Of a DNA stretch of 64,000 nt, positions 24,959-54,899 are shown one piece after another. The position numbers and the translations under genes are program-made. Numbering within the stretch: the stretch's first letter is position 1; every line of letters begins with the position of its first letter. The DNA is from an uncultured Chloroflexota bacterium (lineage in GTDB: Bacteria > Chloroflexota > UBA11872 > VXNJ01), in the NCBI GenBank assembly GCA_964496475.1, contig CAZBZS010000002.1, forward strand, positions 56,967 through 120,966, read 5' to 3'. A model generated the notes under the pieces. The model did no database searches. It was not told the DNA's origin and was given only the letters and a program-made list of their open reading frames with translations.

Positions 24959-24965
24959 CTGATTG

Positions 24966-35947: not shown

Positions 35948-36105
35948 CGCCAAACCTGATCGTGGGCGCCGGATGCGGCATGCCGCCGAACTGCGGACAA
36001 ACACCGAGAGTTTATAGGCTGTACCAAATGCCACCAATTCTCGTCGCCCGCCAACCCCTTCCCCTCCGGCTTGATCGCACCGGGTAACGGCGCCGACATT
36101 GTTGA

Positions 36106-37164
<1,059 letters not shown>

Positions 37165-37204
37165 CCATCTGCCACGCTCTGCTTACGGTCGGAGGGCTGG
37201 CCCG

Positions 37205-37728: not shown

Positions 37729-39738
37729 TTGTTAGAATTCGCTGAGATCCTCCGCCTCTCGCTGGTCGAACTCCTTGCTTTGCTCGCGGGTGTCGGCATC
37801 GTCGCTTGGCTGCTGCGGCAAGAACGCCGGCTGCCCATTCTCCTGGGCGGCGGGTTGGCCGTAGGACACGCCCTCTCGATTTTCATCCTCATGGCTCTCC
37901 TGCGTTTGGCGCCAATTGGACTCGCTGTCCCCCTCGTATTCCTGATTGCTTTACCACCCGCCACGTTCGCGATCCTGAACCTGCGCAGGCGGCCTTACGT
38001 CTGGGGTATCTCCCTCGGATGGACCGTGCTCGCCCTCTCGATCCTCGCGCTGATTTCATTTGGGGCAGCGGTGGACCTGGCCGCCAGCGTTTGGAATGGC
38101 TCCACTCACGAGAATTTGGTTGTCCGGATGGCCATGGCCGCCCACGCCGCCGAGAGCCCGTGGCCGGTCATGGACCCATATTCGCCCGATCATCAGCGGC
38201 TCTATCGCCACGCCGCCCAGGTCTGGACGGCTGCCCTCATGCGCGTCTCCGGAGCCGGCCTCTATCCCGCGACCGTCGTTACAGTAGTGGCGTCCGTCTT
38301 AGCGATCGCTGGCGGACTGTTCGCCGCAGTCGCCCGGCTACGCTCACACCTGGCCGGCTTTCTCGGCGCTGCCCTTTTCCTCACCGCCACCCCCGCGAAT
38401 TTCCTTGGTGTTTGGAAAACCCCGTTTGGCTCCCTGAGCACCTCCAAAGCCTACGGCCTTGCCACCGTCAAAAGGGAACTCGCCCAGGGGTACGTGCTGG
38501 GCCACGGCCTAGCGCTCGCGCCGGGCAACGACTTCACGCTGATGGTTGGCCTGGGTGCCGGGTCCGGCGCGGTATTTCTGGCCTCAACGCTGGTTGACCC
38601 GACCACGCGACGCCGTACCGGCATCCTGGTCGCGGCAATGGCCCTTGCGGTCGCCGGCGCCGCCACGGAACAGATACTGCCGGTCGCCGTCGCCACGTTG
38701 CTTGCCGTGGCTGCCGTTCTCGCCGTTCGCCGCCGCCTGGCAGAGGCCTTGTCGTTCGCTGTTCTGGGTCTTCTTGCCTCCGTCCTCGTAGTTGTCCCCG
38801 AGGGAACTTACGCAGCCCTCGCGTTCGGGAGTGAGATCGGCCAGCGCGCGGGGTTCGCGTTTACGCCCGAGTACTTTCTCCGCCTGCCTACCGAATATCT
38901 CTTCTTCGCCGGCTCCGAGTCGAATTTCTTCGCCGTCCCTCCCGAAACCTTTCGGATCTGGCTATTCGAACCCATCGCGATCAAAGAAATTGGTTGGATT
39001 TACGTGGCCCTAGCGTCCTTGGTCCTCCTCTCCCGGAGACGATATTCTGCCTCGATATTGGCGTTCGCCGTAGCGCCGGCGATAGCTTTGCTAATTCCCG
39101 GTCTTGTGTCGGACCGGCTCTATGAAATCAATATCGCCAGATTTACGGTGCTTGGAATTTCGTTGGGTGGGCTGGCCGCCGGCGTCGCCGCGGCCGAACT
39201 GCTGGCAAAGCGTAAGGCCGGACTTGCCCGTGTGGGCGCAAGCGTCCTGGCCGGTGGGCTCATTGTCTTCGCCAGCGCCACCTGGATGCTTGCCGTGCCT
39301 TTCTGGCCGGCCAAGCTTTTCGAGCAGCCCTATCCCCATCTCGGGGAAGATCTTGAGTCCACTGACTACCTGCGCTCCCTCGATTACGGACGTCGAGCCC
39401 TGATCCTCCCCGGTCCCACCAACAAGGAGGAGGTGAACTCGGACGGCTGGGAAGGGATGCACCGGTTTGTCGTCTCCTTTGGCGCGACTGCCATACCGAT
39501 GGGTCTGGATCGCTGGGGAGCAGCCCACCTGTATCAGCCCTACTACCTGCCGGCCTACAACTCGCTAGATGAGGCCGCCATGGCGCAATTACGGATCGAC
39601 ACCATCTATGTCGTGCCCCATCTTCTCACCGACGACCAGGAACGAATGCTGGAGAACGCCGTCGCCGAAGGGCGGGCGAAGTTGTTGTTCGAATCCTCCG
39701 CCGGCAATCGACGGATTTATGAATACCAGTTCCGCTAA
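37729..39738 (+). CDS. Large polytopic membrane protein, GT-C-like, paralog 1 of 3
   Basis: 669 aa; about 12 TM helices plus a C-terminal soluble domain; loop motif ASVWNGSTHENLVVRMAMAAH...WPVMDPYSP shared with the genes at 40515 and 52818(-). Confidence 0.7.
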   Translation: MLEFAEILRLSLVELLALLAGVGIVAWLLRQERRLPILLGGGLAVGHALSIFILMALLRLAPIGLAVPLVFLIALPPATFAILNLRRRPYVWGISLGWTVLALSILALISFGAAVDLAASVWNGSTHENLVVRMAMAAHAAESPWPVMDPYSPDHQRLYRHAAQVWTAALMRVSGAGLYPATVVTVVASVLAIAGGLFAAVARLRSHLAGFLGAALFLTATPANFLGVWKTPFGSLSTSKAYGLATVKRELAQGYVLGHGLALAPGNDFTLMVGLGAGSGAVFLASTLVDPTTRRRTGILVAAMALAVAGAATEQILPVAVATLLAVAAVLAVRRRLAEALSFAVLGLLASVLVVVPEGTYAALAFGSEIGQRAGFAFTPEYFLRLPTEYLFFAGSESNFFAVPPETFRIWLFEPIAIKEIGWIYVALASLVLLSRRRYSASILAFAVAPAIALLIPGLVSDRLYEINIARFTVLGISLGGLAAGVAAAELLAKRKAGLARVGASVLAGGLIVFASATWMLAVPFWPAKLFEQPYPHLGEDLESTDYLRSLDYGRRALILPGPTNKEEVNSDGWEGMHRFVVSFGATAIPMGLDRWGAAHLYQPYYLPAYNSLDEAAMAQLRIDTIYVVPHLLTDDQERMLENAVAEGRAKLLFESSAGNRRIYEYQFR

Positions 39739-40471
39739 GTTCCACGCGCTTGCCCTAGCCGGGGTCTGGTTTCTCGGTGTCCTGAGCTGGGCCACAGCCC
39801 TTTTGCTACCTTTGGCCTGGCCGGTGTCCAGCATGCCCGCCCGGTCCGCCCTGTTCCCCATTGGTCCCGTCTCGGACTTCGTCGTGCCCGGGCAGTCGTT
39901 TGGCACCCCGGAAGAAATCTCCGCTATCGACATTTTGATTCGCGTCGGCGGACCGTTCGGCGCTTCCACCCCGGTGGGTATGGCCGTTTACGAGGATGTC
40001 GACCGCACGTCGCTCGTCGCGCGATCCGCGGCCGAGCCGGTCTCGGTCCCGGCAGGGCTGGCGGTTGTCCGCTTTGACCTGGACGTTCCAATCGACGGCA
40101 ACCAGCGTTTTTATCTGGAACTCGAAATCCCGCCCGACAATCCGTGGCCAATATTCGTGGGCGGTACCCGCAACGATCCCCAGCGCGCCGGCGATCGTCT
40201 ATATCTCGAACGCAAACCCGGCTGGTCGGATCAGGACATCGCCTACCAGTTTTTCCGGCGTCAGACCGGAGTCCAACGTTTCATATATACAGCTTCTGTG
40301 CGCCCGGAGATGGCCTGGGCCATCATCCCTCCCCTCGTGGCCGTGCTCGGAATGTCAGCCGGCCTATCGCTGCTTGTCCTGCGAAACTACGGCTGGATCA
40401 CAATCACTGGGTCGGCTGTGGCTCTCCCCGGCCTCGCCTTGCTCGCGCTCCTGGTATGGCTATTTCTTTGA
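39719..40471 (+). CDS. Bitopic membrane protein, partner-family paralog B
   Basis: ATG at 39719 overlaps the upstream stop by 20 bp; FPIGPVSDFVVPGQSF...IRVGGPFG...FYLELEIPPDNPWPIF...GWSDQDIAYQFFRRQ; N- and C-terminal TM helices. Confidence 0.6.
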   Translation: MNTSSAKFHALALAGVWFLGVLSWATALLLPLAWPVSSMPARSALFPIGPVSDFVVPGQSFGTPEEISAIDILIRVGGPFGASTPVGMAVYEDVDRTSLVARSAAEPVSVPAGLAVVRFDLDVPIDGNQRFYLELEIPPDNPWPIFVGGTRNDPQRAGDRLYLERKPGWSDQDIAYQFFRRQTGVQRFIYTASVRPEMAWAIIPPLVAVLGMSAGLSLLVLRNYGWITITGSAVALPGLALLALLVWLFL

Positions 40472-40514
40472 ATCATTTGTCTCCAACGCAAGGTCGGCCA
40501 ACAGGATCTAAATC

Positions 40515-42524
40515 GTGAGTCTCTTTGAACTGATCCTCGCCTTCGTCCTCGCGGGACTCCCTTGGCTCGCTGGTCTTCGACTTGTCGTGTGGCTGGTGCC
40601 CGGTGAGTCACGCCTGCCCATCCTGCTCGGGGCGGGGGGTGGCGTCGGTATAGGCGCCTTCCTCCTGGCCCTGATGACGTCGCTGCGTCTTTTGCCGGTG
40701 GAGGTTGTGGTCCGAGGAGTCTTCATACTTTCCGTTGCGCTGGCCATTTGGGCCACCACCGAGTTACGCCGCCGCCGCCTGCGCTGGGACATCTCAAGCG
40801 GCTGGAGCGTCCTCGTGTTTGGCTTCCTGGGAGTGGTGGTAGTTGGCGCCACCATGAATTTCGCTTCCGGGGTCTGGAATGGCGCGACCCACGAGAATCT
40901 CGCCGTGCGCATGGCGATGACCGCGCACATGGCCTCCGGTGATTGGCCCCCGGCCGACCCCTACGCGCCGGGAGTCGAGCGCCTTTATCGTTACACCGCG
41001 CAGGCCTGGGGCGCGTCCGTCATGCGCATCGGTGGGGTGGGCTTATTCGAGGCTGTTTTGGCCATTACCATCACTTCAGTTGTGGCGATCTTCGGCGCGA
41101 TATTCGCGACCGTGGCATCGCTCCGCAATTACTTGTTCGGCCTGTTCGCCGCCGCAGGATTTGTTACCGCCGCCCATGCCAGTTTTCTCGGTCTCTGGAA
41201 GGCCCCGTTTGGCGAATACAGCGTATCTCGCGGCGAGATTCTGGCCGGGCTCGATCGTGAATTAGTCCAGGGCTTTACCGGAAGCCACGGTTTCGCCCTA
41301 CTGCCGGGTAATGACTTCACCAACGTCGTCGCTATCGCCGCCGGGTTCGGCGGCGCTTTCCTGACCGTTCAATTACTCCGCGGTGCCTCGACCCGTATCC
41401 TGCTCGCGGCTCTGGCTGCCGTGTGTTTTGGGGCGATGGCCGCCGCCGCCGAGCAGACCCTCCCCATCGCGCTGGCGATCCTGATGATGCTCGCCCCCGG
41501 TTACGCGGTCAGGGGCGACTGGCGAGCCGCTCTTACCGTGGCGCTAATCGCAGTGACCGGTGTGGTCCTCGCTCTGGTTCCCCAGGGTTCGCTCTCGGCG
41601 ATCGCCTTCGGTTCGGAGGTCGGATCACGGGCAAGCTTTGGCTTTACACCGGAAAATTTCTTTACACTGCCGACCGACGCCATGCTGTATTCCGCCCGGA
41701 CATCCCCGTTCTTCTCCGTCCCCGCCGGGCAAGTGCGCGTTGGGTTCTTCAATCCGATCGTGCTTAAGGAACTACCCTGGGTCTTTCTGGCGTTCGGGTT
41801 GGGCGCATATTTCGTCTTTCGCGCACGACGGCTCTATCTCGTGCCATTCCTCGGCATGGCGCTGACCGCCTTCCTCATCCCGGGGCTGTTTACCGATCGC
41901 GTTTACCCGATTAACATCGCCCGCTTCACCTCCGTCGGCGTCTATCTGGCGGGTCTGTTCGCCGGGCTCGTCGCCGCCGAACTCTGGACCCGATCAGGGC
42001 GATATCGGGCCGCCTACCGTGCCGTTGGCGTGACTCTGATGATCCTCGTAATGGGGTCGTGGGTCGCCAGCGTCCCTCTCTGGCCAGCCCGTCTTTACGA
42101 CACCGCCAACGCCTCGTTAACCGAAGATCTCGAAGTCGCTGCCTTTTTGAGGGAGGGCCCCTACGGTCGCCGGGCGCTGGTTCTGCCAGGTCCAACCACC
42201 CTCGCTGACGTCATTACCGACGACTGGGAAGGTCAACATAAATTCGTCGTCGCTTTCGGCGCCACCTCGATACCGCTCGGACTCGACGCTTACAGCGAAG
42301 GCGGGTGGTACGGCGCCCACTACCTTCACGCCTACGAAACTCTCGATTCCGACGCCATGCAGGCGCTGGGCATAGACACCGTAGTTGTCGCCCCTCAGCT
42401 AATCAGCGCCCCTCAGGTCGAAATGCTGACCCGGGCCAGGGAAGAAGATCGTTTGGTGCTGGAATTCATGAGCTCTGGCGGCGTCCGGGCCGTCTACTCA
42501 TATTCTGGAGGCGACCGTGACTGA
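40515..42524 (+). CDS. Large polytopic membrane protein, GT-C-like, paralog 2 of 3
   Basis: 669 aa; ASGVWNGATHENLAVRMAMTAH...WPPADPYAP; collinear with paralog 1. Confidence 0.7.
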   Translation: MSLFELILAFVLAGLPWLAGLRLVVWLVPGESRLPILLGAGGGVGIGAFLLALMTSLRLLPVEVVVRGVFILSVALAIWATTELRRRRLRWDISSGWSVLVFGFLGVVVVGATMNFASGVWNGATHENLAVRMAMTAHMASGDWPPADPYAPGVERLYRYTAQAWGASVMRIGGVGLFEAVLAITITSVVAIFGAIFATVASLRNYLFGLFAAAGFVTAAHASFLGLWKAPFGEYSVSRGEILAGLDRELVQGFTGSHGFALLPGNDFTNVVAIAAGFGGAFLTVQLLRGASTRILLAALAAVCFGAMAAAAEQTLPIALAILMMLAPGYAVRGDWRAALTVALIAVTGVVLALVPQGSLSAIAFGSEVGSRASFGFTPENFFTLPTDAMLYSARTSPFFSVPAGQVRVGFFNPIVLKELPWVFLAFGLGAYFVFRARRLYLVPFLGMALTAFLIPGLFTDRVYPINIARFTSVGVYLAGLFAGLVAAELWTRSGRYRAAYRAVGVTLMILVMGSWVASVPLWPARLYDTANASLTEDLEVAAFLREGPYGRRALVLPGPTTLADVITDDWEGQHKFVVAFGATSIPLGLDAYSEGGWYGAHYLHAYETLDSDAMQALGIDTVVVAPQLISAPQVEMLTRAREEDRLVLEFMSSGGVRAVYSYSGGDRD

Positions 42525-43245
42525 TCGCCTTTCTATTGCCGGTTCCGCGATCGCCGCCGCCGTTCTCTGGATCGCGTTCCTACTAGTGCCCGTGGATTGG
42601 TCGGTGTCGTCCGTACCCGCCGCCGGCAGCCTCATCAACATCGGGCCTGTTTCGTCCTACGTGATCCCTAGCCAGACCATCTTGCCTACCGAGCCGGTCG
42701 ACAAAGTCGCAGTACCTATCCGCGTGGGCGGGCCATTTGGTTCCAGCGTGCCGGTCCGTCTGCTCGTCCTCACAGAGCCTGGGGGCGATGAACTCGCCGC
42801 CACCGCCGCGGCCGCCGTCTCCATTCCCGCCGGATTCGACCTTGTCGTATTCGAGCTCGACAACCCCTTGCCGACCTCTCGCTGGGCCTACCTGGAATTC
42901 GAAATTCCGTTCGAAACACAGTGGCCGATATTAATCGGCGGCAGCAAGTCGGACTTGGTTGAGTTCCCGGGACAGCTATTCCTTCGAGGGCAGGCCGGCT
43001 GGCCGGACCAGGACATATTCCACCAGCTACTCCGCCGTCAGAATCTTGCTTCGCGAATTCCGGTGATCTGGTCGCAGCATCGTGCGACTCTCCTAGGATA
43101 CTTGGCTCTCCTCCTTCTCATCGCGGCGATTTCGGCAGGTCTGGGACTCGTTGTCGGGCGCCGGCGCCGCGTTCTGCAGTGGCCGCTGGCCCTTCTTCCG
43201 CTCCCAGTCACGGTTGTAACCTATTACTTCTACGCCCTGCTCTAG
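42517..43245 (+). CDS. Bitopic membrane protein, partner-family paralog C
   Basis: GTG start overlaps the upstream stop by 8 bp; INIGPVSSYVIPSQTI...PIRVGGPFG...AYLEFEIPFETQWPIL...GWPDQDIFHQLLRRQ. Confidence 0.6.
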   Translation: MTDRLSIAGSAIAAAVLWIAFLLVPVDWSVSSVPAAGSLINIGPVSSYVIPSQTILPTEPVDKVAVPIRVGGPFGSSVPVRLLVLTEPGGDELAATAAAAVSIPAGFDLVVFELDNPLPTSRWAYLEFEIPFETQWPILIGGSKSDLVEFPGQLFLRGQAGWPDQDIFHQLLRRQNLASRIPVIWSQHRATLLGYLALLLLIAAISAGLGLVVGRRRRVLQWPLALLPLPVTVVTYYFYALL

Positions 43246-43254
43246 TCGCCGGTC

Positions 43255-44295: not shown

Positions 44296-44399
44296 TGCTC
44301 TGACCTCCAGGAGATTGCCGGCGGCGAGCTGATCTTTAACCGACGCTGCAAGAACATGATTGTCAACAGACTCTCCCTCGATGATCCTTTTGCCAAATT

Positions 44400-44744
44400 T
44401 TGGACCGTAGAAGAAATTCTGACGAGTCAGAGTGCGCGGTGACGTGTAGGGACAGGCTCTGGCTCAACGGTTTGGCAAGGATGCTGACCGGCTCAGATTT
44501 CTCGACCAAACAGAGGCATCCAGTGGCACCAAGGGCCGTTGCGAAGGAAAGCAAAGCCCCGTTGATCAAGCGTCTCCGGCAAGCGATCCGGGACGATAGC
44601 TACGTGATTCCGTCTCGCGAAATAACTGCTGAATTTGCACGGTCCTACTATGCTCGGAATCGGCATCTCTCCATAGTGCGACGGCCATTGCCGGTCAACC
44701 TGGAGAACCGCTTTCCGCTCGACCAGGCCGAGGCCGACGTCTAA
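44400..44744 (+). CDS. Possible FlgM-like anti-sigma-28 factor (start uncertain; alternative ATG at 44481)
   Basis: The C-terminal region LIKRLRQAIRDDSYVIPSREITAEFA matches the FlgM signature (B. subtilis [26 protein letters not shown]); it lies in a 690-bp otherwise non-coding gap. Confidence 0.35.
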   Translation: MDRRRNSDESECAVTCRDRLWLNGLARMLTGSDFSTKQRHPVAPRAVAKESKAPLIKRLRQAIRDDSYVIPSREITAEFARSYYARNRHLSIVRRPLPVNLENRFPLDQAEADV

Positions 44745-44984
44745 CCTTCTGGCGACCTGACAATTGTCGGGCTCGCTCCCGGGCAATCCCAGCTTAAGCT
44801 GCACACTCGGCGCTTTCGCTAATATGTGCATTGTTCGGTACGGCTCAAACAACGCCGAAGGCCAAAAGGCCGTTCCAGTTTCTAACGAGCGGTCCGAATG
44901 TCGGCGGTCTCTGGTCTCCACTCGGCCGATTAGACTGTACGGTCTTCTTTGTGACCCCTCGCGTTCCACCTCTGACTGGACCGT

Positions 44985-47762
44985 ATGTACCCGGAAATCA
45001 TTGCCGGCGCAATCAAGGTGGCCGTTGCCCTACTCGCGTTCCTGAGCTTCGTCGGCTACGGTCCGGCCCGCCTCATGCTGAACGGCCCCTGGGCCCCTTA
45101 TCGGCTGGTGAGCGCACCCGTTGTCGGCTGGATCATCGTGGTGCCGATTTCGTACCTGCTCAACGCGAATCTACTGGGTATGAACCCTATCTTTTGGATT
45201 CTCGTAGGAGTGGGCGTCATCGGCAATGTAGTCGCGTTCCGGTGGCGCGAGCGAATCGCGGCCGTCCCTCAGGATCGCCGTGTACTGCTGGCCGCCGGAT
45301 TAGGTCTCGGCCTTTTCCTAGTGGCCCTGATCCCCCACGCCAACGACTCCAGCCTAGGCCTTCTCGCGCTCAATGTGGACGAGGAACTGTACTGGCCATA
45401 TGCCGAGCACGTGAAATATTTCCCTTCCACCATGGAAGGCGCCGCGCACTCCCCCTTCGGTGATCTCTTTGTCGCGGCCGACTTCCGCTCCCGGGGGCAG
45501 GGCTTCCCTTACCTCCTCTCCCTCGCAAGCATCGTTTCCGGTACAACCACGTTCCTCGCCTACATGCCTCTCGTATACACGCTGCTCGCCCTCAGTGTCA
45601 TCTCCACATTCCTCTTCGCCCGCGTGGGCCTGAACCTCGGCGGACGTACTTCACTCTTGGCAACCGCGTTATATACCACCAATGGATTGCCGCTGTGGTT
45701 CAGCGGTATGGGCTTCGGTCCTCACATGGTCGCCTTCGCTCTATTGCCGCTAGCCCTGGCCGCGTTGACTGTCGCCCTGAATCACGGCCGGACCGGTCCA
45801 ATCCTCTTCGCCGGGCTTGTCGGCGCCGTCCTTCTCGTTTCGTATTTCTGGGCGATTAGCGCCGTATTCCTCGTGTCCGCAACGTTCCTGACGTTCGGTC
45901 TCATCGTTTTCCAACCCCACCGCATCTTGAGAGTCCGCAGGCTTTTCGCTTTCAGCATCGTCGCGCTCGCCGCCGGATCGGTCGGCTTCTTCTGGTTGCT
46001 TCGCTGGGTAATACCCAGACTACATACCGTCGCATCCGATCTGGATGCATCCTTTGGCAACGCCTGGGGTGATCTGTCATTTCCCCCCTTCCAACTTGCG
46101 CCGGGGCTACAGACTTACCACATGGTCTTCGACAGATCGGGGATCATGGCCGCGATACCGAGCTCCCTGTGGGGATTCCTGATTGCCCTTGAGCAACCCG
46201 TGTGGATCGCCCTCTTGCTCTTGGCCGGGTTCGCACTCCTGAGAATGTCCGGTAATCGACTCGCAGCCACCCTGTTGGCCGTCGGTTTTGCCCTCTTCAT
46301 GTTCTGGGTGCTGCGTATAGCTGCCTATCAATATGGTCACTTCAAGAACTTGTCCTACGTATCCTTTTTCGTTGACACGCTCATCGCCGCCGGTCTCGCG
46401 ACTCTCTGGGTTACCGCACGCCAGCGCTTCGCCGACCTCGTCCCGACCGCCACCTGGCGTCGATGGTCAAATGTGCTCTTGCGGACGGCCGTAGCTCTCA
46501 CTCTGGCGGCCCTGTTGACGCTTACGCTGCGCAATAGTCTGCACACCTTCCGCTGGTACTGGCTCGGATTTTCATGGAACATGCCGCACAGCGTTGTCGC
46601 TGACGTGCAGAGAGTGGCCGATCTCATTCCCGCGGGCGCCAACGTCGCCGTTTCCCCCGACGCGGAATACCCGCTAGCTCGCGAGTCCATCAAGTTCCGG
46701 CCGATCACGCTCGCTTTCCATTACGAAAATAACGCCGTCGAACGCTGGTCCCGCCGGCTCTGGGCCTTACTTGCCACAGAACTCCCCGGCCGCGATGTCT
46801 TTCTGCCCGCCGGAACCACCGCCTTCGCCACCAATCCGGAACTCATCCCTGAAAACCCCGATTTTCTCGTGCTGGGCCAGGACGAAGATCCGCGTCTGCA
46901 CGGACTTGTTCAGGCGGAGAACCTGACTCCCGGCGCTGTCGTCGGCCTCTATCGCGTCCCCGGTCCGAATATTCTTTCCGGTGAAGAATTGATCGCGGCG
47001 GCCGGCGGTCGAGGGCCTCTCATTTCCGGCCGTCCACTGACCATCAGAATCGCATCCGACGGCCTCTTCCCGGGTTCCCCCGAAACCGGCTCCGCCGACC
47101 CGTCCGTCCTCCGCCAGGTCCAGTTAGGAATCGCAAATGTATCCACCGTTCCGGTCACCGTTCAGATCGCCTCCGGCGGCCCCCGCACCTCACTTCGCCT
47201 CGAACCCGGCCTTAACTGGATCATCACCGACCCGATTACGACCGGTTCGACGTTCACCCTTGACCCGGCCGAATCTAACTCAGTAATTCCGATCGTCGCT
47301 CGGTCCCTGGAGCCCGCCCTGGGCGTTCCCGCTAGCGTCACCACCGATTCCCGCGCGATCGTTTGGGTTCAAGCGTTCTCACTCGGGGGCACTATAGAAG
47401 CCCGGCTAACGTTCATCCAGCCCGACGACAAAGGACGCAACGTAGGTGTCAGTTACCGTGAAGATATTTCTCGCGGATTCTGGGTAAGCGCCGTGACCCT
47501 GCCGGCGTCGAGCCATCAAATCGAGCTTCTATATTCTGTTCCCGAGCGTCGCCTGAACGAAACCGTGGACGGCGCGTATGAGAAAATCGGAGTCGCCCGG
47601 GAGGCTCCGGCGGACGGCCGCCGTAAATTCGACCTTGTCTTCGCCCACGGTCAGGAAACCGACCGTCGCCTGTCGCTTTTCGAATACCAGTTCTCGGATC
47701 AGATCGTCCGCCTCATCTGGACCCCCTCGATCCCATACGTTTTCACACTCCGGGATCGCTAG
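44985..47762 (+). CDS. Large polytopic membrane protein, GT-C-like (YfhO/PMT-like architecture) with a ~370-aa C-terminal extracytoplasmic domain
   Basis: 925 aa; about 14 TM helices in the first 550 aa; acidic loop motif NVDEELYWPYAEH similar to the DE motif of PMT/ArnT-type GT-C enzymes. Confidence 0.65.
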   Translation: MYPEIIAGAIKVAVALLAFLSFVGYGPARLMLNGPWAPYRLVSAPVVGWIIVVPISYLLNANLLGMNPIFWILVGVGVIGNVVAFRWRERIAAVPQDRRVLLAAGLGLGLFLVALIPHANDSSLGLLALNVDEELYWPYAEHVKYFPSTMEGAAHSPFGDLFVAADFRSRGQGFPYLLSLASIVSGTTTFLAYMPLVYTLLALSVISTFLFARVGLNLGGRTSLLATALYTTNGLPLWFSGMGFGPHMVAFALLPLALAALTVALNHGRTGPILFAGLVGAVLLVSYFWAISAVFLVSATFLTFGLIVFQPHRILRVRRLFAFSIVALAAGSVGFFWLLRWVIPRLHTVASDLDASFGNAWGDLSFPPFQLAPGLQTYHMVFDRSGIMAAIPSSLWGFLIALEQPVWIALLLLAGFALLRMSGNRLAATLLAVGFALFMFWVLRIAAYQYGHFKNLSYVSFFVDTLIAAGLATLWVTARQRFADLVPTATWRRWSNVLLRTAVALTLAALLTLTLRNSLHTFRWYWLGFSWNMPHSVVADVQRVADLIPAGANVAVSPDAEYPLARESIKFRPITLAFHYENNAVERWSRRLWALLATELPGRDVFLPAGTTAFATNPELIPENPDFLVLGQDEDPRLHGLVQAENLTPGAVVGLYRVPGPNILSGEELIAAAGGRGPLISGRPLTIRIASDGLFPGSPETGSADPSVLRQVQLGIANVSTVPVTVQIASGGPRTSLRLEPGLNWIITDPITTGSTFTLDPAESNSVIPIVARSLEPALGVPASVTTDSRAIVWVQAFSLGGTIEARLTFIQPDDKGRNVGVSYREDISRGFWVSAVTLPASSHQIELLYSVPERRLNETVDGAYEKIGVAREAPADGRRKFDLVFAHGQETDRRLSLFEYQFSDQIVRLIWTPSIPYVFTLRDR

Positions 47763-47773
47763 TTAGTCGGAGG

Positions 47774-48634
47774 CTACCGAAGGCCTATTTCAAGGCTTGC
47801 CATCGGCAATTCGCCCGGCAACAACACCACCAGACTCACCGCAACGAGCGCCAGAGTGATCGCCACCACATCAGTGGCCCTGACCGGCAATCTCAGCTTC
47901 CGGGCTGCTAGGAACGCGCCGCCGGCCAGCACCGCCATCCCGGATACCATCAGAATGGCCAGAGCGATGGCCAGCACCGCCCTTGCCTCGGATTGTGCCG
48001 CCTGGGCTGCGGTTGCCAGCCGATCCCAGATCGCCTCCACCCAGGCAAAGGGTCGGGGCGCGCTGGTCACTCGGAACTGCTTGAAATAAAGATCTTGGCC
48101 GTGAATCTCTTCGTCCAGATCGTAGTGGTTACCGAACGGGTACTCATCGGTCCGTACATACCGGAAAAACAGCCTATCGCTAGATGAGCTCAAGATCGCC
48201 TCGGTCCGTAAATAAAACGGCTTGCCGGCGGGGACCACATCCGGCTGAAACCTCAGACTGGCCTGCCAATCGTCCCGACTATCTCGAAACACGACGATTC
48301 CCGATGCGTAGGTATCGGAGGCGTCTGGGTCCGGTTTCAACTCGAATTTCACCCGGATCCAGCCCTGCGGAGCAACATCCGTAGTCAGTCTCAGATCGAT
48401 CCGGGCCAGCCCATCGCCGGGATTGAGCATGGTTTGGCCCTTTACCCCGGTCAACGTCTGCGTCTGGAGGAGGAGTATTTCGCGAGAGAACTCCGCCACC
48501 GGGATAAAGACCGGCCGCAACGCGAAATATGCGATCACCACCATGCTCGTCACCACCATCATCAGGCTAACGCTCACTCGAAGCACGTCGCCTCCGAATA
48601 CGCGACCGGCCCCTCTAGCCAAAAGCAACGACAT
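47774..48634 (-). CDS. Bitopic membrane protein, divergent partner-family paralog D
   Basis: N-terminal TM, ~170-aa domain (TGVKGQTMLNPGDGLARIDLRL...WIRVKFELKPDP...LFFRY) with the same motif order as the other partners, C-terminal TM; 20-bp overlap with the upstream gene. Confidence 0.5.
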   Translation of the reverse strand: MSLLLARGAGRVFGGDVLRVSVSLMMVVTSMVVIAYFALRPVFIPVAEFSREILLLQTQTLTGVKGQTMLNPGDGLARIDLRLTTDVAPQGWIRVKFELKPDPDASDTYASGIVVFRDSRDDWQASLRFQPDVVPAGKPFYLRTEAILSSSSDRLFFRYVRTDEYPFGNHYDLDEEIHGQDLYFKQFRVTSAPRPFAWVEAIWDRLATAAQAAQSEARAVLAIALAILMVSGMAVLAGGAFLAARKLRLPVRATDVVAITLALVAVSLVVLLPGELPMASLEIGLR

Positions 48635-49889
48635 CCGGAATTAAGACAAGGAGAAGGTAGACCAGGTTGCCCGCAACCATCAGCGGAATCGTCGCTGCCA
48701 CTACCGGGCCGGCTCGCGGGGTCAACGGCGCGAACGCCGACAGTCCTATAGCCAGCAGCGCCACGAAGGGCAGGAATTCTGGAAAGAGGTACCGACCGTG
48801 CAGCGCCATGTCCACCGAATGGCTGCTCCATAGGCTCAGCGCCAGTAGTCCGAAGAACAGCATCGCCATCGCGGCAGGCAACCAGTCGGAGTCGGCTCTT
48901 GATCGGCGATCGCGAACCCACCCGACCAACCTCGCCAGCAACCCTGCCAAACCCAGTGCCGCGAGCCCCGCGAGCAGGACATACGCCGCCGCCGGAAGCT
49001 TAAGCTTTACCATCCCGTATCCACCCCAGAACGTTGCAAAGTTCTCGCTCACCCAATCGGTTTCCGTCAGGAAGCTCCAGAGGCTATATCCGCGCTCTCG
49101 GTGCGAAATCGGAGCCCCGCCCGACGCGTCCACCGCCGCCTGCGTCGTCGCCACTCCGAGCGGGTCACCGTAAACGATGATCATCCTCACGTACCACCAC
49201 AGCGAAATCGCCAGGCCAATAACGGCCACGATCCCGACCACTCTCAGAATCCGACGCGGATATCGGCGCAACGCCCAAACGACCGTCAGGCCCGCCACTG
49301 GGAAGATCATGAATCCGGTGAATTTGTGAAGCGCCACCAGTCCCAGCGCCACACCCAGGAGCACCGATTCTCGAGTTCCGAAATCCGCCTGATACGCCCG
49401 TACCAGCGCATAGACGCCAAAGGTCGATGCCGCGATCGCCGGCGAATCATTGGTCACGTAGCTGAAGACAAGAGTGAACTGCGGGGTAGTCGCCATCACC
49501 GCCAGCGGCCACACCCGCATCAAGGCGCTAGCAGGAAACAGGCAGCGCAGTGTCAGGTAGGCCAATGTCAGCGTGATTGGAAATAAAGCCACATTCACCA
49601 GTCGGGCCAGGTGGTTGTCAAAAGCCACCTCACCCGATCCGAGCGCACCGAGCAAGAGCGCCGCCGGGACCGCCGACAGGTTGGGCGTAAGTTCATACGC
49701 AACCTGAGCCCTGATCGGCAGTCCGGCGAACGCACCCTCCGCATAGCCCGTAAAGAGCGGCCAGCCTCCCGTGTTCACCATTTCCTGGATCAGGCGAAAG
49801 TGATTTTCTTCGTCTGGTCCCCCGAAGATCGGGGGCCGAACAACCGACCAGATGAATGCGTTCGCCGTTGCGTACACAATCAGCGCCAC
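48615..49889 (-). CDS. PMT_2/ArnT-like GT-C glycosyltransferase (GT39/GT83-like)
   Basis: FGGPDEENHFRLIQEM DE motif in the first loop, about 11 TM helices; the ORF is open to 50168, but that leaves only 2 bp before the divergent selB, so the GTG at 49889 (RBS GAGGGT) is preferred. Confidence 0.6.
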   Translation of the reverse strand: MALIVYATANAFIWSVVRPPIFGGPDEENHFRLIQEMVNTGGWPLFTGYAEGAFAGLPIRAQVAYELTPNLSAVPAALLLGALGSGEVAFDNHLARLVNVALFPITLTLAYLTLRCLFPASALMRVWPLAVMATTPQFTLVFSYVTNDSPAIAASTFGVYALVRAYQADFGTRESVLLGVALGLVALHKFTGFMIFPVAGLTVVWALRRYPRRILRVVGIVAVIGLAISLWWYVRMIIVYGDPLGVATTQAAVDASGGAPISHRERGYSLWSFLTETDWVSENFATFWGGYGMVKLKLPAAAYVLLAGLAALGLAGLLARLVGWVRDRRSRADSDWLPAAMAMLFFGLLALSLWSSHSVDMALHGRYLFPEFLPFVALLAIGLSAFAPLTPRAGPVVAATIPLMVAGNLVYLLLVLIPDVVAFG

Positions 49890-50170
49890 GACTAGTAGAC
49901 CCTCGCCATGACGCTCGAGAAAATGCTGGCCCGATTCCCGTTTCAAACCCAATCCGCGTACTCCTTGGAGACGGTATACGGGGGAACCGCTTCTCGCCCG
50001 ATCGGTAAGACGCGCCGAGCCTACTACAAGCCGATCACCCCTCCGATCTTCCTGTCCACCATCCCTGCCACCATCTTTACCGGCCGTCAGCGACGCTTCA
50101 ATCCGTTGGCGCCATCCCCGGGGCACTAATATCTTCATTTCAGTTTCCAGCTTCGACGGGACACCCACCC

Positions 50171-52054
50171 TTGTTCACGATAGGTACCGCTGGGCACATC
50201 GACCACGGCAAATCCTCGCTCGTAGAGGCCCTCACCGGCGTCCATCCGGATCGCCTGCCTGAGGAAAAGCAGCGCGGCATGACCATCGACCTCGGCTTCG
50301 CCTCATTGACCTTGCCTCGGGGCGATTTGATCGGGATTGTGGACGTACCCGGGCACGAGCGCTTCGTCCGCAACATGGTCGCCGGCGTTGGCGGCATCGA
50401 CGCCGCCCTTCTGGTTGTGGCGGCAGACGAAGGCGTAATGCCCCAAACCCGCGAACATCTGGACATCATCGATTTGATGGGTATTGATCGCGGGGTGGTC
50501 GCACTTACAAAAGCCGATCTCATCGACGACGAAGACTGGATCGAGCTGGTAACCGCCGACATCCTTGAGCTGCTGGACCACACGTCGCTTCGAAACTCCA
50601 CCGTAGTCCCGGTCTCCGCCGTCCGCCGCCGGGGTCTGGACAAGCTACTTACCGAACTGGATTCCGCCTTGGCCGGGATCGACCGCCCCAATCTCTCAGG
50701 GGTCCCTCGACTACCGGTGGATCGCTCCTTCTCCATCCCTGGTTTTGGCACCGTAGTCACCGGCACTCTGCAGGATGGGTTCCTTGAAGTCGGAGCCGAA
50801 CTAGAAATTCTGCCCGCCGGTGGCCGAACTAGAGTGAGAGGTATCCAAATGCACGGTCAAAGTGTGGAGCGCGCCGAACCTGGCGCCCGCACCGCCGTTA
50901 ATCTTGCCGGTGTATCCGCACTCGATCTTCCTCGGGGAACGGTTCTCGCCCTTCCCGGAACTATGACCCCCACCCGTCTCATGGATGTCCAATTCCAAAT
51001 GTCGCCTCACGCACCGTTCTCCTTGCACAGCGGCAGGGACATAGCTTTCCACACGGGAACGTCTGAAGTACTAGCGGCCGTTCGCCTCCTGGAGAGCGAT
51101 GTCCTTTACGCGGGCCAGACCGGCTGGGCGCAAATGCGCGCTAGGGCTCCGCTGGTTGTGTGCCCCGGCGATCACTTCATCGTCCGGCAGTTATCTCCGG
51201 CCATCACTCTGGGCGGAGGAGTCGTGGTGGCGCCCCGCGCCGCCCGGATTCGCCGCCATGATCAACGAGCCATCCAACTGCTTGAGCGGCTCACCGGGGG
51301 CAGCACCGTTGATTTGTTGCTGGCCACGCTCGATCCCCACGGCAAACTCGACCGCGACGATCTCGCCCGGCGAGCGGATCTATCGGAGTCGGAGTTCTCC
51401 GACGCACTGGATTCGGCGCTCGCCGAGAAGCGGATCGTCGAAGTCGACTCAACACTTTTTGCTGTCGAGGAAGTGCATCGCCTTAGCGAGAAACTGCTCT
51501 CAACCCTTAAACAATTTCACGCCGCCAACCCGTTACGCCCAGGCATACCGCGGGAAGAGCTGAGAAACCAGCTTGGGCTTTCCACCGACAATTTCGTCGG
51601 CGTTATGCAACGATTTATCGATGAAGGTATCGCCAGCGGAGGAGACACCTTCATCGCCCTCCCAGAACACACACCTGCGCTCACTCCCGAAATAGAGGCC
51701 AACGTCCGATATTTACTCGGCCAACTCTCCGGTTCCGGCCTGGAGGTGCCCCCACTGCGAGACATTGCGGCCAGTCTAGGAATCGGGGACGAAGTGCTGC
51801 AGGCCCTGGAGGATGACGGGCGGCTGATTCGGGTGACCCCCAACATCGGTTATGAACGCGCCGCCTTCAACAGCCTTGTGGAGCAGGTCAAGACTCTTAT
51901 CGACGAACGCGGCCGGATCGATGTTGCCGGACTACGTGATCAGTTCGGCAGCAGTAGGAAATACTGCCTCGCGCTGCTCGAGCACCTGGACTCGACCGGC
52001 GTGACAAGACGGGTCGGCGACGACCGAGTGCTGCGAGCCCGCCGAAACGCCTAG
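50171..52054 (+). CDS. selB: Selenocysteine-specific translation elongation factor
   Basis: 627 aa; TAGHIDHGKSSLVEALTGVHPDRLPEEKQRGMTIDLGFA is near-identical in pattern to E. coli SelB; C-terminal winged-helix region ...SRKYCLALLEHLDSTGVTRRVGDDRVLR. Confidence 0.9.
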   Translation: MFTIGTAGHIDHGKSSLVEALTGVHPDRLPEEKQRGMTIDLGFASLTLPRGDLIGIVDVPGHERFVRNMVAGVGGIDAALLVVAADEGVMPQTREHLDIIDLMGIDRGVVALTKADLIDDEDWIELVTADILELLDHTSLRNSTVVPVSAVRRRGLDKLLTELDSALAGIDRPNLSGVPRLPVDRSFSIPGFGTVVTGTLQDGFLEVGAELEILPAGGRTRVRGIQMHGQSVERAEPGARTAVNLAGVSALDLPRGTVLALPGTMTPTRLMDVQFQMSPHAPFSLHSGRDIAFHTGTSEVLAAVRLLESDVLYAGQTGWAQMRARAPLVVCPGDHFIVRQLSPAITLGGGVVVAPRAARIRRHDQRAIQLLERLTGGSTVDLLLATLDPHGKLDRDDLARRADLSESEFSDALDSALAEKRIVEVDSTLFAVEEVHRLSEKLLSTLKQFHAANPLRPGIPREELRNQLGLSTDNFVGVMQRFIDEGIASGGDTFIALPEHTPALTPEIEANVRYLLGQLSGSGLEVPPLRDIAASLGIGDEVLQALEDDGRLIRVTPNIGYERAAFNSLVEQVKTLIDERGRIDVAGLRDQFGSSRKYCLALLEHLDSTGVTRRVGDDRVLRARRNA

Positions 52055-52093
52055 CCAAACCAGTGACCGGGATCCCATCTGAACGGCTTTCGA

Positions 52094-52831
52094 CTACCTG
52101 AAAAACGCGATTACAAATATCGTCCCCAGCGATACGGCCACCGTTAATAGCGTCGCGACCGAGGGCCGGACGCTCCGCAGCCTGCGGCTCCCAGCCTCCG
52201 CCATCGCCATGAATATCGTGAAGACTGTCATATGGAGCAAGACCAGTAGAAAAGCTCCGCTCACGAGCATTGCTGGATACAGGGACCACCATGTGATCAG
52301 CCTCTCCACCAACGACTGTCGGCGCAGGAGCTGAAACACTAGATCTTGGTCGGTGAATCCGGGCGCTCTTTCCATGTACAGCCGCCCCTCGGGGATTTGA
52401 TCCGCATGCGTCGCGAGCGTATAGGTCGGCCACTCCGCTGTAGGCGAAACTTCAATTTCGAAGTACAACGGCCCCGCAACAGCTATCGGCTTCTCAAAAT
52501 CGAAAGTGACCTGCTCCGTCTCCTTCGCGGTCGACTTAATGTTTACGGTCCCCGAGCGAATCCTTTGCAAGCCATTCTGTCCTTCGTATTCGATCCGGAT
52601 ACTTAGCAGATTTGTTTTCCCGAACGGCCCTCCGACCCGCACCGGTACGCTGATCTCGTCAAATGGCTCCGCCGACCGAAAAGTCTGCCCGGCGGGGACA
52701 TCCGCCGAAATTGGACCCATCCGAAAAGGCGAGCGGCCTGGGTCCGATAGGGGCCACGACACCGGTACCAGCGCGATTGCGAGCCAGACCGCCAATCCCA
52801 ACATAACCAACCCCACCTCACGATGGAGCAT
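52094..52831 (-). CDS. Bitopic membrane protein, partner-family paralog E
   Basis: 14-bp overlap with the upstream 693-aa gene; FRMGPISADVPAGQTF...VPVRVGGPFG...LYFEIEVSPTAEWPTY...GFTDQDLVFQLLRRQ. Confidence 0.6.
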   Translation of the reverse strand: MLHREVGLVMLGLAVWLAIALVPVSWPLSDPGRSPFRMGPISADVPAGQTFRSAEPFDEISVPVRVGGPFGKTNLLSIRIEYEGQNGLQRIRSGTVNIKSTAKETEQVTFDFEKPIAVAGPLYFEIEVSPTAEWPTYTLATHADQIPEGRLYMERAPGFTDQDLVFQLLRRQSLVERLITWWSLYPAMLVSGAFLLVLLHMTVFTIFMAMAEAGSRRLRSVRPSVATLLTVAVSLGTIFVIAFFR

Positions 52832-54899
52832 TGGGGCCCCCAGTCACTACCTCTAAAATTCGCCTCACGTTGCCAGAGCTCGTGAACGCCTCCCGCAGGT
52901 AGCCGCCCTGGACGGCAGCCTCAAGAAGTCGACCCTGATCGGCGGAGATCTGATCCACCGCGACGTAAATCAAATCAATCCCCAGCTCCTGTAACCGCTC
53001 CGGAGCGAGAGTCTCCTGGGCTTCGGCATACGTCTCCTCGTAATCGGCCCGGTGTCCGAGATTGTCGAAGCCCATCGGCACCCGTAGCCGGCCAAACGTC
53101 ACCGCGTACTTGTGCATCCCGTCGCCAAAGTCACTATTCAACTCGGCGAACGTGCGCGGCCCTGGAAGAAGCAGCGCCCGTTGCGGATATGGCAGTGCGG
53201 CAGCGAACCGCGCCGCTTCCAGTTCGTCCGCAAGTACCGGGCTCTCATATTCCTGAAATTCCATGGGCAGCAGCGGCAGCGTCAGCAACCAGGTCCCACC
53301 CACCAACACCGCCAGACCCGAAGCAATAACTCTTCCGACCAATTTGCGCCGGCCCGACTGGCGCCAGAGAGCGACCACCACTATTCCCATGGACATGGCC
53401 GCCAGCACCATCGCCGTGACCAAGAAGCGTCCCGTGTTATGAGGATTCAACGAGTCGCGCAGAATTCCCGGGATCATCAGCGTGATAACTGCCGCCAGCG
53501 CCGGGACCGCGAACTCAGGTCGTCGCTTCCAGACCGCAATGACGAAGGCTCCCCCGATGCCCACCAGCAGCCAGCCGAACTGGTACCACATCAGCGGCCC
53601 AAGCAATTGGGCTCGCTCCACCGGCTCGGTCGGAAAGAATATTGAGGTGCTTCCCGGAGAGAGGATTTCCCTCGTCGGGAGCGTAAAAATATCAGCCGCG
53701 GTCAGCTGTAGGTAACTTGAAGACACTTCCGCCACACCGATAGTCGCCGCGTTTATTGGACCCGTCGGAACTACGCTTGCCAATGCGCCCAGGACCACGA
53801 TCGCGGTGAGGCTGGCAGCCGCAGCCAGCCTCTTCCGCACAAGTAGCGCCATCGTCACGATTCCGATCGTCCCCGCAAGCACCGGAAACAGATGTTCCGT
53901 GGTCAGGCTCGCCCCTCCGAACGCAGCGGCGGCCGCCAGTACCGCAACCGGCCGGATAGTTCGTTCCCGGGCTGTTACCACGCTTAACCCACCCAGTCCC
54001 AACGCCCCTGCGACTCCCACCAGCACCGTGAAATTAAACGACGCCAGCTGTTCAAACGCAGTCCCGAGAACGTAGCCTTGCTTAAATCGATTCAGATGTT
54101 CCGCCAGGGTGTATGCGACCGACGGCGAGTAGTCGGGGTAGCTGGCTACCAGCAGTGAGAGGAAATTCTGCGGGGCGCCCACCGTCACAAACACAGCCCC
54201 CACAATTGCAGCAGCCCGACCTGCGAGCAGGCTGATCACGGCGTACACGCCCAGCAACAGGAAGGCCGTGGCCACGAGCGTGGCAGACAGACCGGCTGCA
54301 AAGATGTTCGCCCGCGCAGTCACGGCGATCGCCGCCGTCCAGAGCTGCCCTCCAAACCTGTAAGCCTGCACATAATCCGGTTCCCATGGATTCACCGGCG
54401 GCCAGTTTCCGGCCGCCAGGTGGGAAGACAAGGCCAGTTGAATCAGCAGATTCTCATGGCTGTTTCCGTACCAGACACTCGATACGTACCCGACCGCTGT
54501 CACGAACAGTGCCAGAAGAAGAAAAGCCGCCAACGCCCGCAGTGCCCAGCTGTCGAATTCAATCTGCAAATCGCCTTTGCGAATCTTGTCTGCCGCCAGG
54601 ATCGCCAGGGCGATCGTCGTGATTTGTACGACTCTGACGACTATGTACAGAGGCAGAAACGCCACCAGTGCAGTCAGCGCAAACGTAACCAGGCCGATTC
54701 CCAGCGACCCACCAATGCCTAGGACTACCAACAGCCGCCGCTCTCTCGGAAGAATCCAACGCACGATCTGAACGCCGGCCATCGGCGCGGCCAGCCCGGC
54801 TAAGAACGTGGTGAAATATTCGTAACTAGGTACACCGATGTCCATCGTCACTATCAGATCCTGAATCTGCTCTGTCCAGGCCGCGCAGATATCCCGCAA
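52818..54899 (-). CDS. Large polytopic membrane protein, GT-C-like, paralog 3 of 3
   Basis: 693 aa; SSVWYGNSHENLLIQLALSSH...WPPVNPWEP; collinear with the genes at 37729 and 40515. Confidence 0.7.
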   Translation of the reverse strand: MRDICAAWTEQIQDLIVTMDIGVPSYEYFTTFLAGLAAPMAGVQIVRWILPRERRLLVVLGIGGSLGIGLVTFALTALVAFLPLYIVVRVVQITTIALAILAADKIRKGDLQIEFDSWALRALAAFLLLALFVTAVGYVSSVWYGNSHENLLIQLALSSHLAAGNWPPVNPWEPDYVQAYRFGGQLWTAAIAVTARANIFAAGLSATLVATAFLLLGVYAVISLLAGRAAAIVGAVFVTVGAPQNFLSLLVASYPDYSPSVAYTLAEHLNRFKQGYVLGTAFEQLASFNFTVLVGVAGALGLGGLSVVTARERTIRPVAVLAAAAAFGGASLTTEHLFPVLAGTIGIVTMALLVRKRLAAAASLTAIVVLGALASVVPTGPINAATIGVAEVSSSYLQLTAADIFTLPTREILSPGSTSIFFPTEPVERAQLLGPLMWYQFGWLLVGIGGAFVIAVWKRRPEFAVPALAAVITLMIPGILRDSLNPHNTGRFLVTAMVLAAMSMGIVVVALWRQSGRRKLVGRVIASGLAVLVGGTWLLTLPLLPMEFQEYESPVLADELEAARFAAALPYPQRALLLPGPRTFAELNSDFGDGMHKYAVTFGRLRVPMGFDNLGHRADYEETYAEAQETLAPERLQELGIDLIYVAVDQISADQGRLLEAAVQGGYLREAFTSSGNVRRILEVVTGGPNAPS

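Follow-up and report, generated by a model that had tools for sequence, protein, structure and literature searches.

Three gene pairs in the window, that is, the whole 64,000-nucleotide stretch of DNA from an uncultured Chloroflexota bacterium analysed here, each encode a large polytopic membrane protein with a GT-C fold and a small membrane protein with a CBM-like beta-sandwich, and these pairs probably constitute glycosyltransferase modules that add sugars to an extracytoplasmic cell-surface glycan. GT-C enzymes build and decorate cell envelopes.

Organization of the three gene pairs

The large membrane proteins are encoded at 37729..39738 (plus strand, 669 aa), 40515..42524 (plus strand, 669 aa, starting 43 nt past the first partner gene) and 52818..54899 (minus strand, 693 aa as counted from TTG at 54899, a start that is uncertain given an in-frame ATG at 54845). 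Over ~650 aa, copies 1 and 2 share 45% identity, and copy 3 is 32-33% identical to either of them; the pairwise BLASTP E-values are 4.6e-175, 1.3e-80 and 3.2e-81. Each copy is followed by a partner gene that overlaps its end by 20, 8 and 14 nt, respectively: partner 1 at 39719..40471 (plus strand, 250 aa from ATG at 39719), partner 2 at 42517..43245 (plus strand, 242 aa) and partner 3 at 52094..52831 (minus strand, 245 aa), and these partners are mutually related (pairwise E 6e-40 to 1e-29). A sequence-only reading of this DNA had proposed three collinear paralogs, each with a partner-family gene behind it on the same strand, and both proposals are borne out by the ORFs present and by the BLASTP E-values (4.6e-175 to ~1e-80 among the large proteins); the minus strand that it had named holds only for the third pair, pairs 1 and 2 being on the plus strand. 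The three modules are best explained as old duplicates, and the divergence of the partners tracks that of their cognate GT-C. Different specificities of the three copies are plausible from sequence comparison, because each of the three orthogroups has been retained in related genomes, together with partners that diverge in parallel.

Topology, the conserved loop and candidate catalytic residues

Copy 1 contains 14 predicted TM helices and a C-terminal extracytoplasmic alpha/beta domain. This number, given by the model and by hydropathy alike, replaces the ~12 helices counted earlier, and the C-terminal soluble domain described at that time was indeed found, at ~aa 524-669. Orientation was assigned from the K+R density in 65 family members, which lies at 0.20-0.38 for the short loops placed in the cytoplasm, seven in all, and at 0.00-0.07 for those placed outside, a positive-inside pattern that is family-wide and that, given 14 TM helices, also assigns the C-terminal domain to the extracytoplasmic side. 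The loop at aa 121-177, with a K+R density of 0.05, is placed outside and not in the cytoplasm. It carries the motif that had been written as a regular expression and that matches all three copies, at aa 122-153 in copy 1 (38092..38187, plus strand; WNGSTHENL...WPVMDPYSP, including the candidate catalytic E128), aa 121-152 in copy 2 (40875..40970, plus strand) and aa 143-174 in copy 3 (54378..54473, minus strand), and it represents the best-conserved segment among the three paralogs (61/40/37% identity). Its expected position in the first extracytoplasmic loop stands insofar as this is the first large one, but it comes after TM4 and not after TM1. Canonical GT-Cs have their catalytic loop after TM1, whereas the motif loop of the window proteins follows TM4, and the topology suggests that TM4 corresponds to TM1 of GT-C enzymes.

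Conservation across the 65 family members points to a limited set of residues in and beyond this loop. Position 128 is E or D in 50 members, often with D or H before it, while P146 and P153 are kept in 64 and 62, respectively. Just downstream of the motif, where copy 1 has Y159/R160, Y159 is present in 64/65 and [HR]160 in all 65 members. Further along the protein, E314 is found in 64 members (D in the remaining one) and R471 in 58 (K in 4). From these data we infer [D/E]128 as a candidate acid/base, acting with Y159, [H/R]160, E314 and R471. The HEN triplet had been put forward as the catalytic site, of which the acidic position is kept family-wide, but H127 and N129 are specific to the subfamily. 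E32/R34 in the TM1-TM2 loop, considered as the 'first loop' catalytic site of GT-Cs, were rejected because the positive-inside pattern puts this loop in the cytoplasm. A non-enzymatic role, with catalytically dead GT-C-like scaffolds or transporters and the partner as a structural envelope protein, has an analogy in PIG-U/GAB1, the non-catalytic GT-C-like subunits of GPI transamidase, and is regarded here as very improbable.

GT-C fold and remote homology to DUF2298

Using the predicted model as query, the best 22 Foldseek matches are all GT-C, which supports the earlier GT-C-like reading at the fold level. The predicted fold of the polytopic membrane domain superposes on solved GT-C enzymes, and the entry TM helix leads into a long loop that is placed outside and carries a conserved acidic residue, though after TM4. 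The likeness to characterised GT-Cs is at the level of the fold only. Pfam and NCBIfam scans yielded no meaningful match for the three proteins or the three partners, and hence PMT_2, DUF2142, PTPS-related and YfhO, which had been named as families to search and gave 0 matches for the three proteins in the Pfam scan, were rejected as sequence relatives. A PDB sequence search with 3- and 65-sequence profiles returned no match; in hhalign, the family profile obtained a probability of 0.3% against the window's own PMT-like protein and nothing against its 925-aa protein. Membership in STT3/AglB/PglB (GT66) was rejected, with no W.D[YFW]G and no Pfam STT3 match, as was membership in ArnT/PMT (GT83/GT39), with PF02366 and PF13231 unmatched; among the three copies, DxD occurs nowhere but in the extreme C-terminal domain of copy 2. 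In comparison with ArnT (GT83), STT3/AglB/PglB (GT66) and PMT (GT39), the window proteins thus differ by the lack of detectable sequence similarity, by three extra TM helices before the helix entering the catalytic-type loop and by a partner that is a separate polypeptide.

A remote sequence relative was identified in DUF2298 (Pfam PF10060), of which we take TIGR03662 'Chlor_Arch_YYY' to be the NCBIfam model. The family profile aligns with it end to end in hhalign (99.4%, E 4.1e-21, 642 aligned columns), a profile search started from the family retrieves PF10060 proteins (E 1.4e-9 to 3.8e-4), and PF10060 is matched directly by 12 of the 65 distant family members (best E 1.5e-10). The three window proteins themselves match neither PF10060 nor NCBIfam models even at E<=10. 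The homology spans the N-terminal three TM helices, TM4, the outside loop, later helices and the C-terminal domain. Since this alignment runs end to end, the window loop represents a divergent version of the loop that reads GEK...PPED...YYYG in DUF2298, with [H/D]E..[H/R]...G.[FW]PP.[DN]P..P.....Y[HR].. in the window proteins aligned with GEK..D...R...PPED.W.AG...NYYYGG, and R471-F472 aligned with the R.NTVFK segment. The YYY.G that is invariant in DUF2298 proteins reads YRHA, YRYT and YRFG in the window copies, YYY being reduced to Y-R-[HYF] with its first Y kept in 64/65 family members. The window proteins have also lost the DUF2298 insert with INEFP...GDLHAH, they are shorter (669-693 aa versus ~700-800 aa) and a dedicated CBM-like partner is seen only in their subfamily. 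Matches with organism names are Chloroflexota on the window-family side and one archaeon, Halolamina, on the DUF2298 side. Taken together, the window enzymes are best explained as a previously unrecognised, very divergent and Chloroflexota-restricted branch of the DUF2298 superfamily. A literature search retrieved no functional study of DUF2298, and the 'YYY domain' that appears in papers is an unrelated regulator domain.

Partner proteins

The model of partner 2 consists of a TM helix (aa 2-22), a 7-strand beta-sandwich (48-140) and C-terminal helices (177-241), and partner 1 likewise has an N-terminal TM helix, a beta-sandwich and two C-terminal TM helices. The confidence of the partner model is moderate (pLDDT 61.6), and the resemblance of the sandwich to CBMs is of a generic kind for such beta-sandwich matches. 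A partner gene is located after every GT-C copy with downstream sequence (loci L001-L007 and L011). It is absent beside the distant family members examined, and hence the fold itself does not depend on it. In two distant members, P0047 and P0070, a full-length GT-C body of the family is preceded in the same polypeptide by an N-terminal TM and beta-rich module, which in one of the two is a weak CBM60 match. Comparison by hhalign or BLAST revealed no significant similarity of the partner family to the 286-aa and 365-aa look-alike proteins or to the N-terminal modules of P0138 and P0047, and any link between all of these and the partners is architectural only.

Structurally, the translationally coupled partner would present its CBM-like beta-sandwich on the outside of the membrane, where it would most likely bind the acceptor glycan and offer it to the cognate GT-C, the two proteins presumably forming a physical complex. 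Alternatively, OST-like or PMT-like enzymes could glycosylate proteins, such as an S-layer or another surface protein, in place of a polysaccharide, with the partner binding either the protein substrate or the transferred glycan; this is considered unlikely, and a glycan acceptor is preferred.

Gene neighbourhood and proposed pathway

The three pairs reside in a glycan-biosynthesis island that extends from ~13 kb to 64 kb of the window and also holds PMT-like and AftD-like pairs. The first two pairs belong to an apparent operon in the order GMD - RidA-like - copy 1 - partner 1 - copy 2 - partner 2, in which GMD, a GDP-mannose 4,6-dehydratase (36163..37164, plus strand; TIGR01472, 424.6 bits, above the 415 cut-off), comes first and a YjgF/RidA-like protein (37109..37666, plus strand; PF14588, E 3.2e-17) lies between it and copy 1, both being conserved in loci L003 and L004, where GMD is again upstream. 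On the minus strand, a GT2 with a GT-A fold resembling polyprenyl/dolichyl-phosphate sugar synthases is encoded at 35276..36037 (Pfam Glycos_transf_2, E 2.4e-28; best NCBIfam matches AglJ 1.3e-37, PpgS 2.9e-25 and Dol-P-hexose transferase 5.5e-23, all below curated cut-offs), and is kept upstream of the module in L003 (90%) and L004 (78%). Directly downstream of it, also on the minus strand, is the gene for a polytopic 452-aa protein (33883..35241), a candidate MOP/Wzx-type flippase with a weak Pfam Polysacc_synt match (E 0.0015, 18.5 bits versus a cut-off of 28.2), which is kept in L003 (88%), L004 (79%) and L001/L005 (54%); in L001/L005 it adjoins a 229-aa GT2 and a GT-C/partner pair. No GtrA-type flippase was recognised. 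Conservation of the AglJ/PpgS-like GT2 and of the MOP-like protein beside the pair extends to a 48%-identical orthologous locus, and the distant member P0067 adjoins a divergently transcribed 248-aa GT2.

The GT2 at 35276-36037 is a candidate maker of the lipid-linked donor. In the proposed pathway, this cytoplasmic enzyme would load a sugar onto polyprenyl phosphate, the sugar possibly being GDP-derived because GDP-mannose 4,6-dehydratase is co-transcribed, and a flippase, for which the adjacent MOP-like protein is the candidate, would carry the lipid-linked sugar to the outer leaflet. There the GT-C would pass it to the extracytoplasmic acceptor, using an active site to which the loop after TM4 would contribute [D/E]128, Y159 and [H/R]160, and later helices, from their outer ends, E314 and R471. 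The three modules would in this way make three different additions to the cell-surface glycan, differing in sugar, linkage or acceptor position. The putative activity, donor and acceptor could also be those of glycan polymerases or ligases (Wzy, WaaL, processive Emb-like) that act on polyprenyl-diphosphate-linked oligosaccharides and build an envelope backbone in place of decorating it. GT-C enzymes such as OSTs use PP-linked donors, and the locus encodes numerous sugar-modifying enzymes, several cytoplasmic GT2s and a MOP/Wzx-like protein, while no Wzy was recognised in it; even so, we consider such a role improbable and favour the decoration of a surface glycan.

Relation to known systems and significance

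Multi-component transmembrane glycosylation systems have been defined in a review, which describes several GT-Cs on one donor pathway in L. lactis Csd and in mycobacteria (PMC8035078). As in GtrA/GtrB/Gtr*, CsbB/GtcA/YfhO, GacI/J/K/L and C. youngae ORF15/14/12 (GT136), the window clusters and co-conserves a GT-A synthase-like gene, a flippase candidate and GT-C-fold genes, and its system logic matches the published descriptions (PMC8035078, PMC11127046). It differs from such three- and multi-component systems in that the GT-C is from a different sequence family, the flippase candidate is MOP-like (with a weak score) and not of the GtrA type, and the putative acceptor-binding module, neither absent nor fused, is encoded on its own as a membrane protein with translational coupling to the GT-C. 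In EmbA/B/C, AftD and GT136 ORF12, a fused CBM is thought to hold the acceptor polymer (PMC8035078, PMC11127046), that of ORF12 binding the unmodified backbone (PMC11127046). The window likewise pairs a CBM-like beta-sandwich with a GT-C membrane domain on the outer face, but encodes it in a gene of its own, with its own N- and C-terminal TM anchors; fused versions occur among the distant family members P0047 and P0070.

The enzyme class and the pathway logic are already known, and mechanistically the system is unsurprising. What is gained is that an unannotated Chloroflexota family is now tied to DUF2298 and to the GT-C fold, with mutable candidate catalytic residues proposed. To our knowledge, every new GT-C sequence family so far has become a new CAZy family after its activity was shown (e.g. 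GT136). The separately encoded CBM-like membrane subunit suggests, in a form open to experiment, how acceptor polymers could be recognised by small GT-Cs, and it has been speculated that these may need a second, acceptor-binding protein (PMC8035078). A more far-reaching version, held only tentatively and with somewhat less than even expectation, is that the GT-C works only as a heterodimer with its neighbour, which would supply the acceptor-recognition CBM as a membrane-anchored subunit of its own, that this gives DUF2298 a function and that polysaccharide is assembled stepwise on the outer face. If so, this would be the first 'split' GT-C and acceptor-binding protein of the kind speculated upon (PMC8035078), and extracytoplasmic glycan glycosylation would be the first function given to the DUF2298 / YYY-domain superfamily as a whole. 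The three modules, together with the PMT-like and AftD-like pairs, would then build the envelope polysaccharide of this uncultured Chloroflexota lineage step by step, and the island of ~45 kb as a whole probably specifies a little-known surface glycan.

Three paralogous membrane proteins and their partner genes

The ORF listing and its translation give three long genes for GT-C-type membrane proteins, designated copy 1 (669 aa, 37729-39738, plus strand), copy 2 (669 aa, 40515-42524, plus strand) and copy 3 (693 aa, 52818-54899, minus strand, starting at TTG 54899 or ATG 54845). Alignment and BLASTP bore out the sequence-only reading that these are collinear paralogs, copies 1 and 2 sharing 45% identity over their full length and each sharing 32-33% with copy 3 (E values of 4.6e-175, 1.3e-80 and 3.2e-81 among the three). 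As had also been noticed, each copy is followed 3' on the same strand by its own partner-family gene, which encodes about 245 aa, with partner 1 (39719-40471, plus) overlapping copy 1 by 20 nt, partner 2 (42517-43245, plus) overlapping copy 2 by 8 nt and partner 3 (52094-52831, minus) overlapping copy 3 by 14 nt; only module 3 is on the minus strand, modules 1 and 2 both being on the plus strand. The partners are paralogs of one another (pairwise E 6e-40 to 1e-29), and since copy 2 starts 43 nt past the end of partner 1, modules 1 and 2 are tandemly duplicated within what appears to be a single operon.

The family is rare, with 12 relatives retrieved by a word-indexed search of 5.8e9 proteins and 101 at E<1e-3, of which 17 at E<1e-30, when 1.84e9 cluster representatives were searched exhaustively with an HMM; all relatives with an organism name come from Chloroflexota MAGs. 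Orthologs of copy 1 (P0001, 92% identity; P0002, 68%), copy 2 (P0012, 80%; P0013, 67%; P0010 and P0011, 64-65%) and copy 3 (P0014, 64%; P0015, 45%) form three orthogroups, each retained in related genomes, and hence the triplication is old and has been maintained.

Fold, topology and conserved residues

Copy 1 was modelled with AlphaFold2 from an alignment of 15 sequences. The model (mean pLDDT 81.6, pTM 0.87) contains 14 long helices, in place of the about 12 TM helices counted from sequence, and after them an alpha/beta domain, and its top 22 Foldseek matches are all GT-C, in agreement with the fold that had been suggested. When the model helices were mapped on the alignment of 65 family members, the density of K+R was 0.20-0.38 in the seven short loops assigned as cytoplasmic and 0.00-0.07 in those assigned outside, and this pattern together with the model helices defines an N-out/C-out protein with 14 TM helices. 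The HEN-containing motif loop (aa 121-177 of copy 1, to which residue numbers refer), situated after TM4, is consequently outside rather than in the cytoplasm, as are E314, loop 356-414 and the C-terminal domain. TM4-TM14 probably correspond to an 11-TM GT-C core, with three extra helices in front.

In the usual GT-C active site, as in ArnT, PglB and PMT, an acidic residue opens the first long outside loop and basic residues are positioned at the outer boundary. The motif expression matches once in each copy, at aa 122, 121 and 143, and no segment is better conserved between the paralogs than this loop (61/40/37% identity). Conservation scored over the 65 members, down to 15-25% identity, retained the acidic position of HEN, with E or D at position 128 in 50 of 65 and often D or H just before it, while H127 and N129 are limited to this subfamily. 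Other conserved positions are 133 (H or R), G143, P146 (64/65), P153 (62/65), Y159 (64/65), 160 (H or R in all 65), E314 (64/65, with D in the remaining one), R471 (58/65, with K in four more) and P590 (64/65). E128, Y159, R160, E314 and R471 are kept in copies 1, 2 and 3.

Relationship to DUF2298 proteins

Searches of Pfam, including the families named in the sequence-only reading, NCBIfam and PDB sequences with the three paralogs yielded no match. A 65-sequence profile reached DUF2298 or 'YYY domain-containing' proteins (PF10060) at E 1.4e-9 to 3.8e-4, which themselves match PF10060 strongly, and profile-profile comparison with seven DUF2298 proteins established homology over 642 columns (99.4% probability, E 4.1e-21), running from the N-terminal helices through the loop and the later helices into the C-terminal domain. 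The motif aligns with the DUF2298 motif GEK..D...R...PPED.W.AG...NYYYGG, and 12 of the 65 distant members match PF10060 directly. Given this profile homology and these matches, the family is, as judged from sequence comparison, a reduced and far-diverged branch of the DUF2298 superfamily, for which the literature searched contained no functional study. One bona fide DUF2298 protein, P0138 (1085 aa), is extended at its N terminus by about 200 aa (residues ~1-200), which by eye resemble a beta-rich domain and then extra TM helices and exhibit no similarity to the partner family.

The partner protein

Only 10 partner relatives were found in 5.8e9 proteins. The model of partner 2 (pLDDT 61.6 overall, 65-89 within strands) begins with a TM helix, continues with a beta-sandwich of seven strands (aa 48-140) and ends in C-terminal helices, and the charge distribution, with MTDR at the N terminus and GRRRR between the last two helices, suggests that the sandwich faces outside. 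Wherever a related locus includes sequence downstream of the GT-C gene (L001-L007, L011), a partner gene lies directly 3' of it, and each partner is closest to that of the orthologous GT-C; the more distant members P0067, P0042 and P0033 are without one. P0047 and P0070 each have a GT-C body that matches the family over its full length (hhalign 100%, E 5e-54), and ahead of it one or two beta-rich modules with TM anchors; one of these modules has a sub-threshold CBM60 match. Since these fused modules share no sequence similarity with the partner, their support for a separate carbohydrate-binding (CBM) subunit is by architecture only.

Genomic context

The modules are located in a glycan-biosynthesis island extending from ~13 kb to the window end, with epimerases/dehydratases, a methyltransferase, a GNAT, an AsnB-like amidotransferase, GT2s, a radical-SAM/B12 enzyme, a carbamoyltransferase, and PMT-like and AftD-like GT-Cs. 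Immediately upstream of copy 1, on the same strand, a RidA-like gene is accompanied by one for a GDP-mannose 4,6-dehydratase, which scores above the equivalog cut-off; divergent from these is a 253-aa GT2, which adjoins a 452-aa polytopic protein with a weak MOP-type flippase match, and L003 and L004 retain all four genes together with the modules. In L001/L005, a 48%-identical locus, the flippase-like gene and a 229-aa GT2 accompany a single GT-C/partner pair, and the distant member P0067 adjoins a divergently transcribed 248-aa GT2. The 253-aa GT2 matches polyprenyl/dolichyl-phosphate sugar synthases best, namely AglJ, PpgS and Dol-P-hexose transferase, in each case below cut-offs.

Two further small proteins have a partner-like architecture, in which a beta-rich soluble stretch is flanked by one TM helix on the N-terminal side and by TM helices on the C-terminal side: a 286-aa protein (47774-48634, minus; syntenic in L004 and L007) directly downstream of the PMT-like gene (48615-50168, minus) and a 365-aa protein (60596-61693, plus) directly downstream of the AftD-like gene (57024-60599, plus). 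Neither resembles the partner family significantly in sequence; by architecture and position behind GT-C-type genes, the island may hold five GT-C/partner pairs. The AftD-like protein, itself large and polytopic, has a sub-threshold AftD GT-C domain match (PF11847, 22.9 bits, the cut-off being 26) and a likewise large polytopic paralog at 61701-63998 (plus, running off the window; 30% identity, E 8e-62). A 925-aa protein (44985-47762, plus), polytopic in its N-terminal half and soluble over its long C-terminal half, lacks Pfam or NCBIfam matches and, by hhalign, any relation to the GT-C paralogs, is syntenic in L004, L006 and L007 at 65-87% identity, and may be another unannotated membrane glycosyltransferase. 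A NodU/CmcH-type carbamoyltransferase (55058-57016, plus), divergent from copy 3, suggests that the product glycan carries O-carbamoylated sugars. Also inside the island, a SelB (selenocysteine-specific elongation factor) gene (50171-52054, plus) separates the PMT-like gene from partner 3, and in the sugar-modification part proteins of 510 aa (21090-22622, minus) and 484 aa (23639-25093, minus), with no Pfam match, lie between an epimerase and an AsnB-like amidotransferase. At the left window end, outside the island, are a GH127 beta-L-arabinofuranosidase and a sulfatase (306-3695).

Proposed mechanism and significance

The neighbourhood follows the gene logic of three- and multi-component transmembrane glycosylation systems (PMC8035078, PMC11127046). 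The GT2 would make a polyprenyl-P-sugar, which would be flipped to the outer leaflet, and each GT-C would move the sugar to an extracytoplasmic glycan, with E128 as the putative acid/base, R160/R471 contacting phosphate and E314 participating, while its cognate CBM-like partner would hold the acceptor. The three modules would carry out three distinct additions. Among the alternatives, protein glycosylation and PP-linked polymerase or ligase activity of the GT-C proteins are each unlikely, and a non-catalytic scaffold role is very improbable.

Both the class of enzyme and the logic of the pathway are already known; the sequence family is unannotated, beyond present Pfam and NCBIfam models, and the literature searched seems to contain no report of its relation to DUF2298 and GT-C. 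A review (PMC8035078) only speculated on a separate acceptor-binding protein, and the CBM-like membrane subunit, which has a gene of its own that is translationally coupled to the GT-C gene, would represent this so far only speculated variant.
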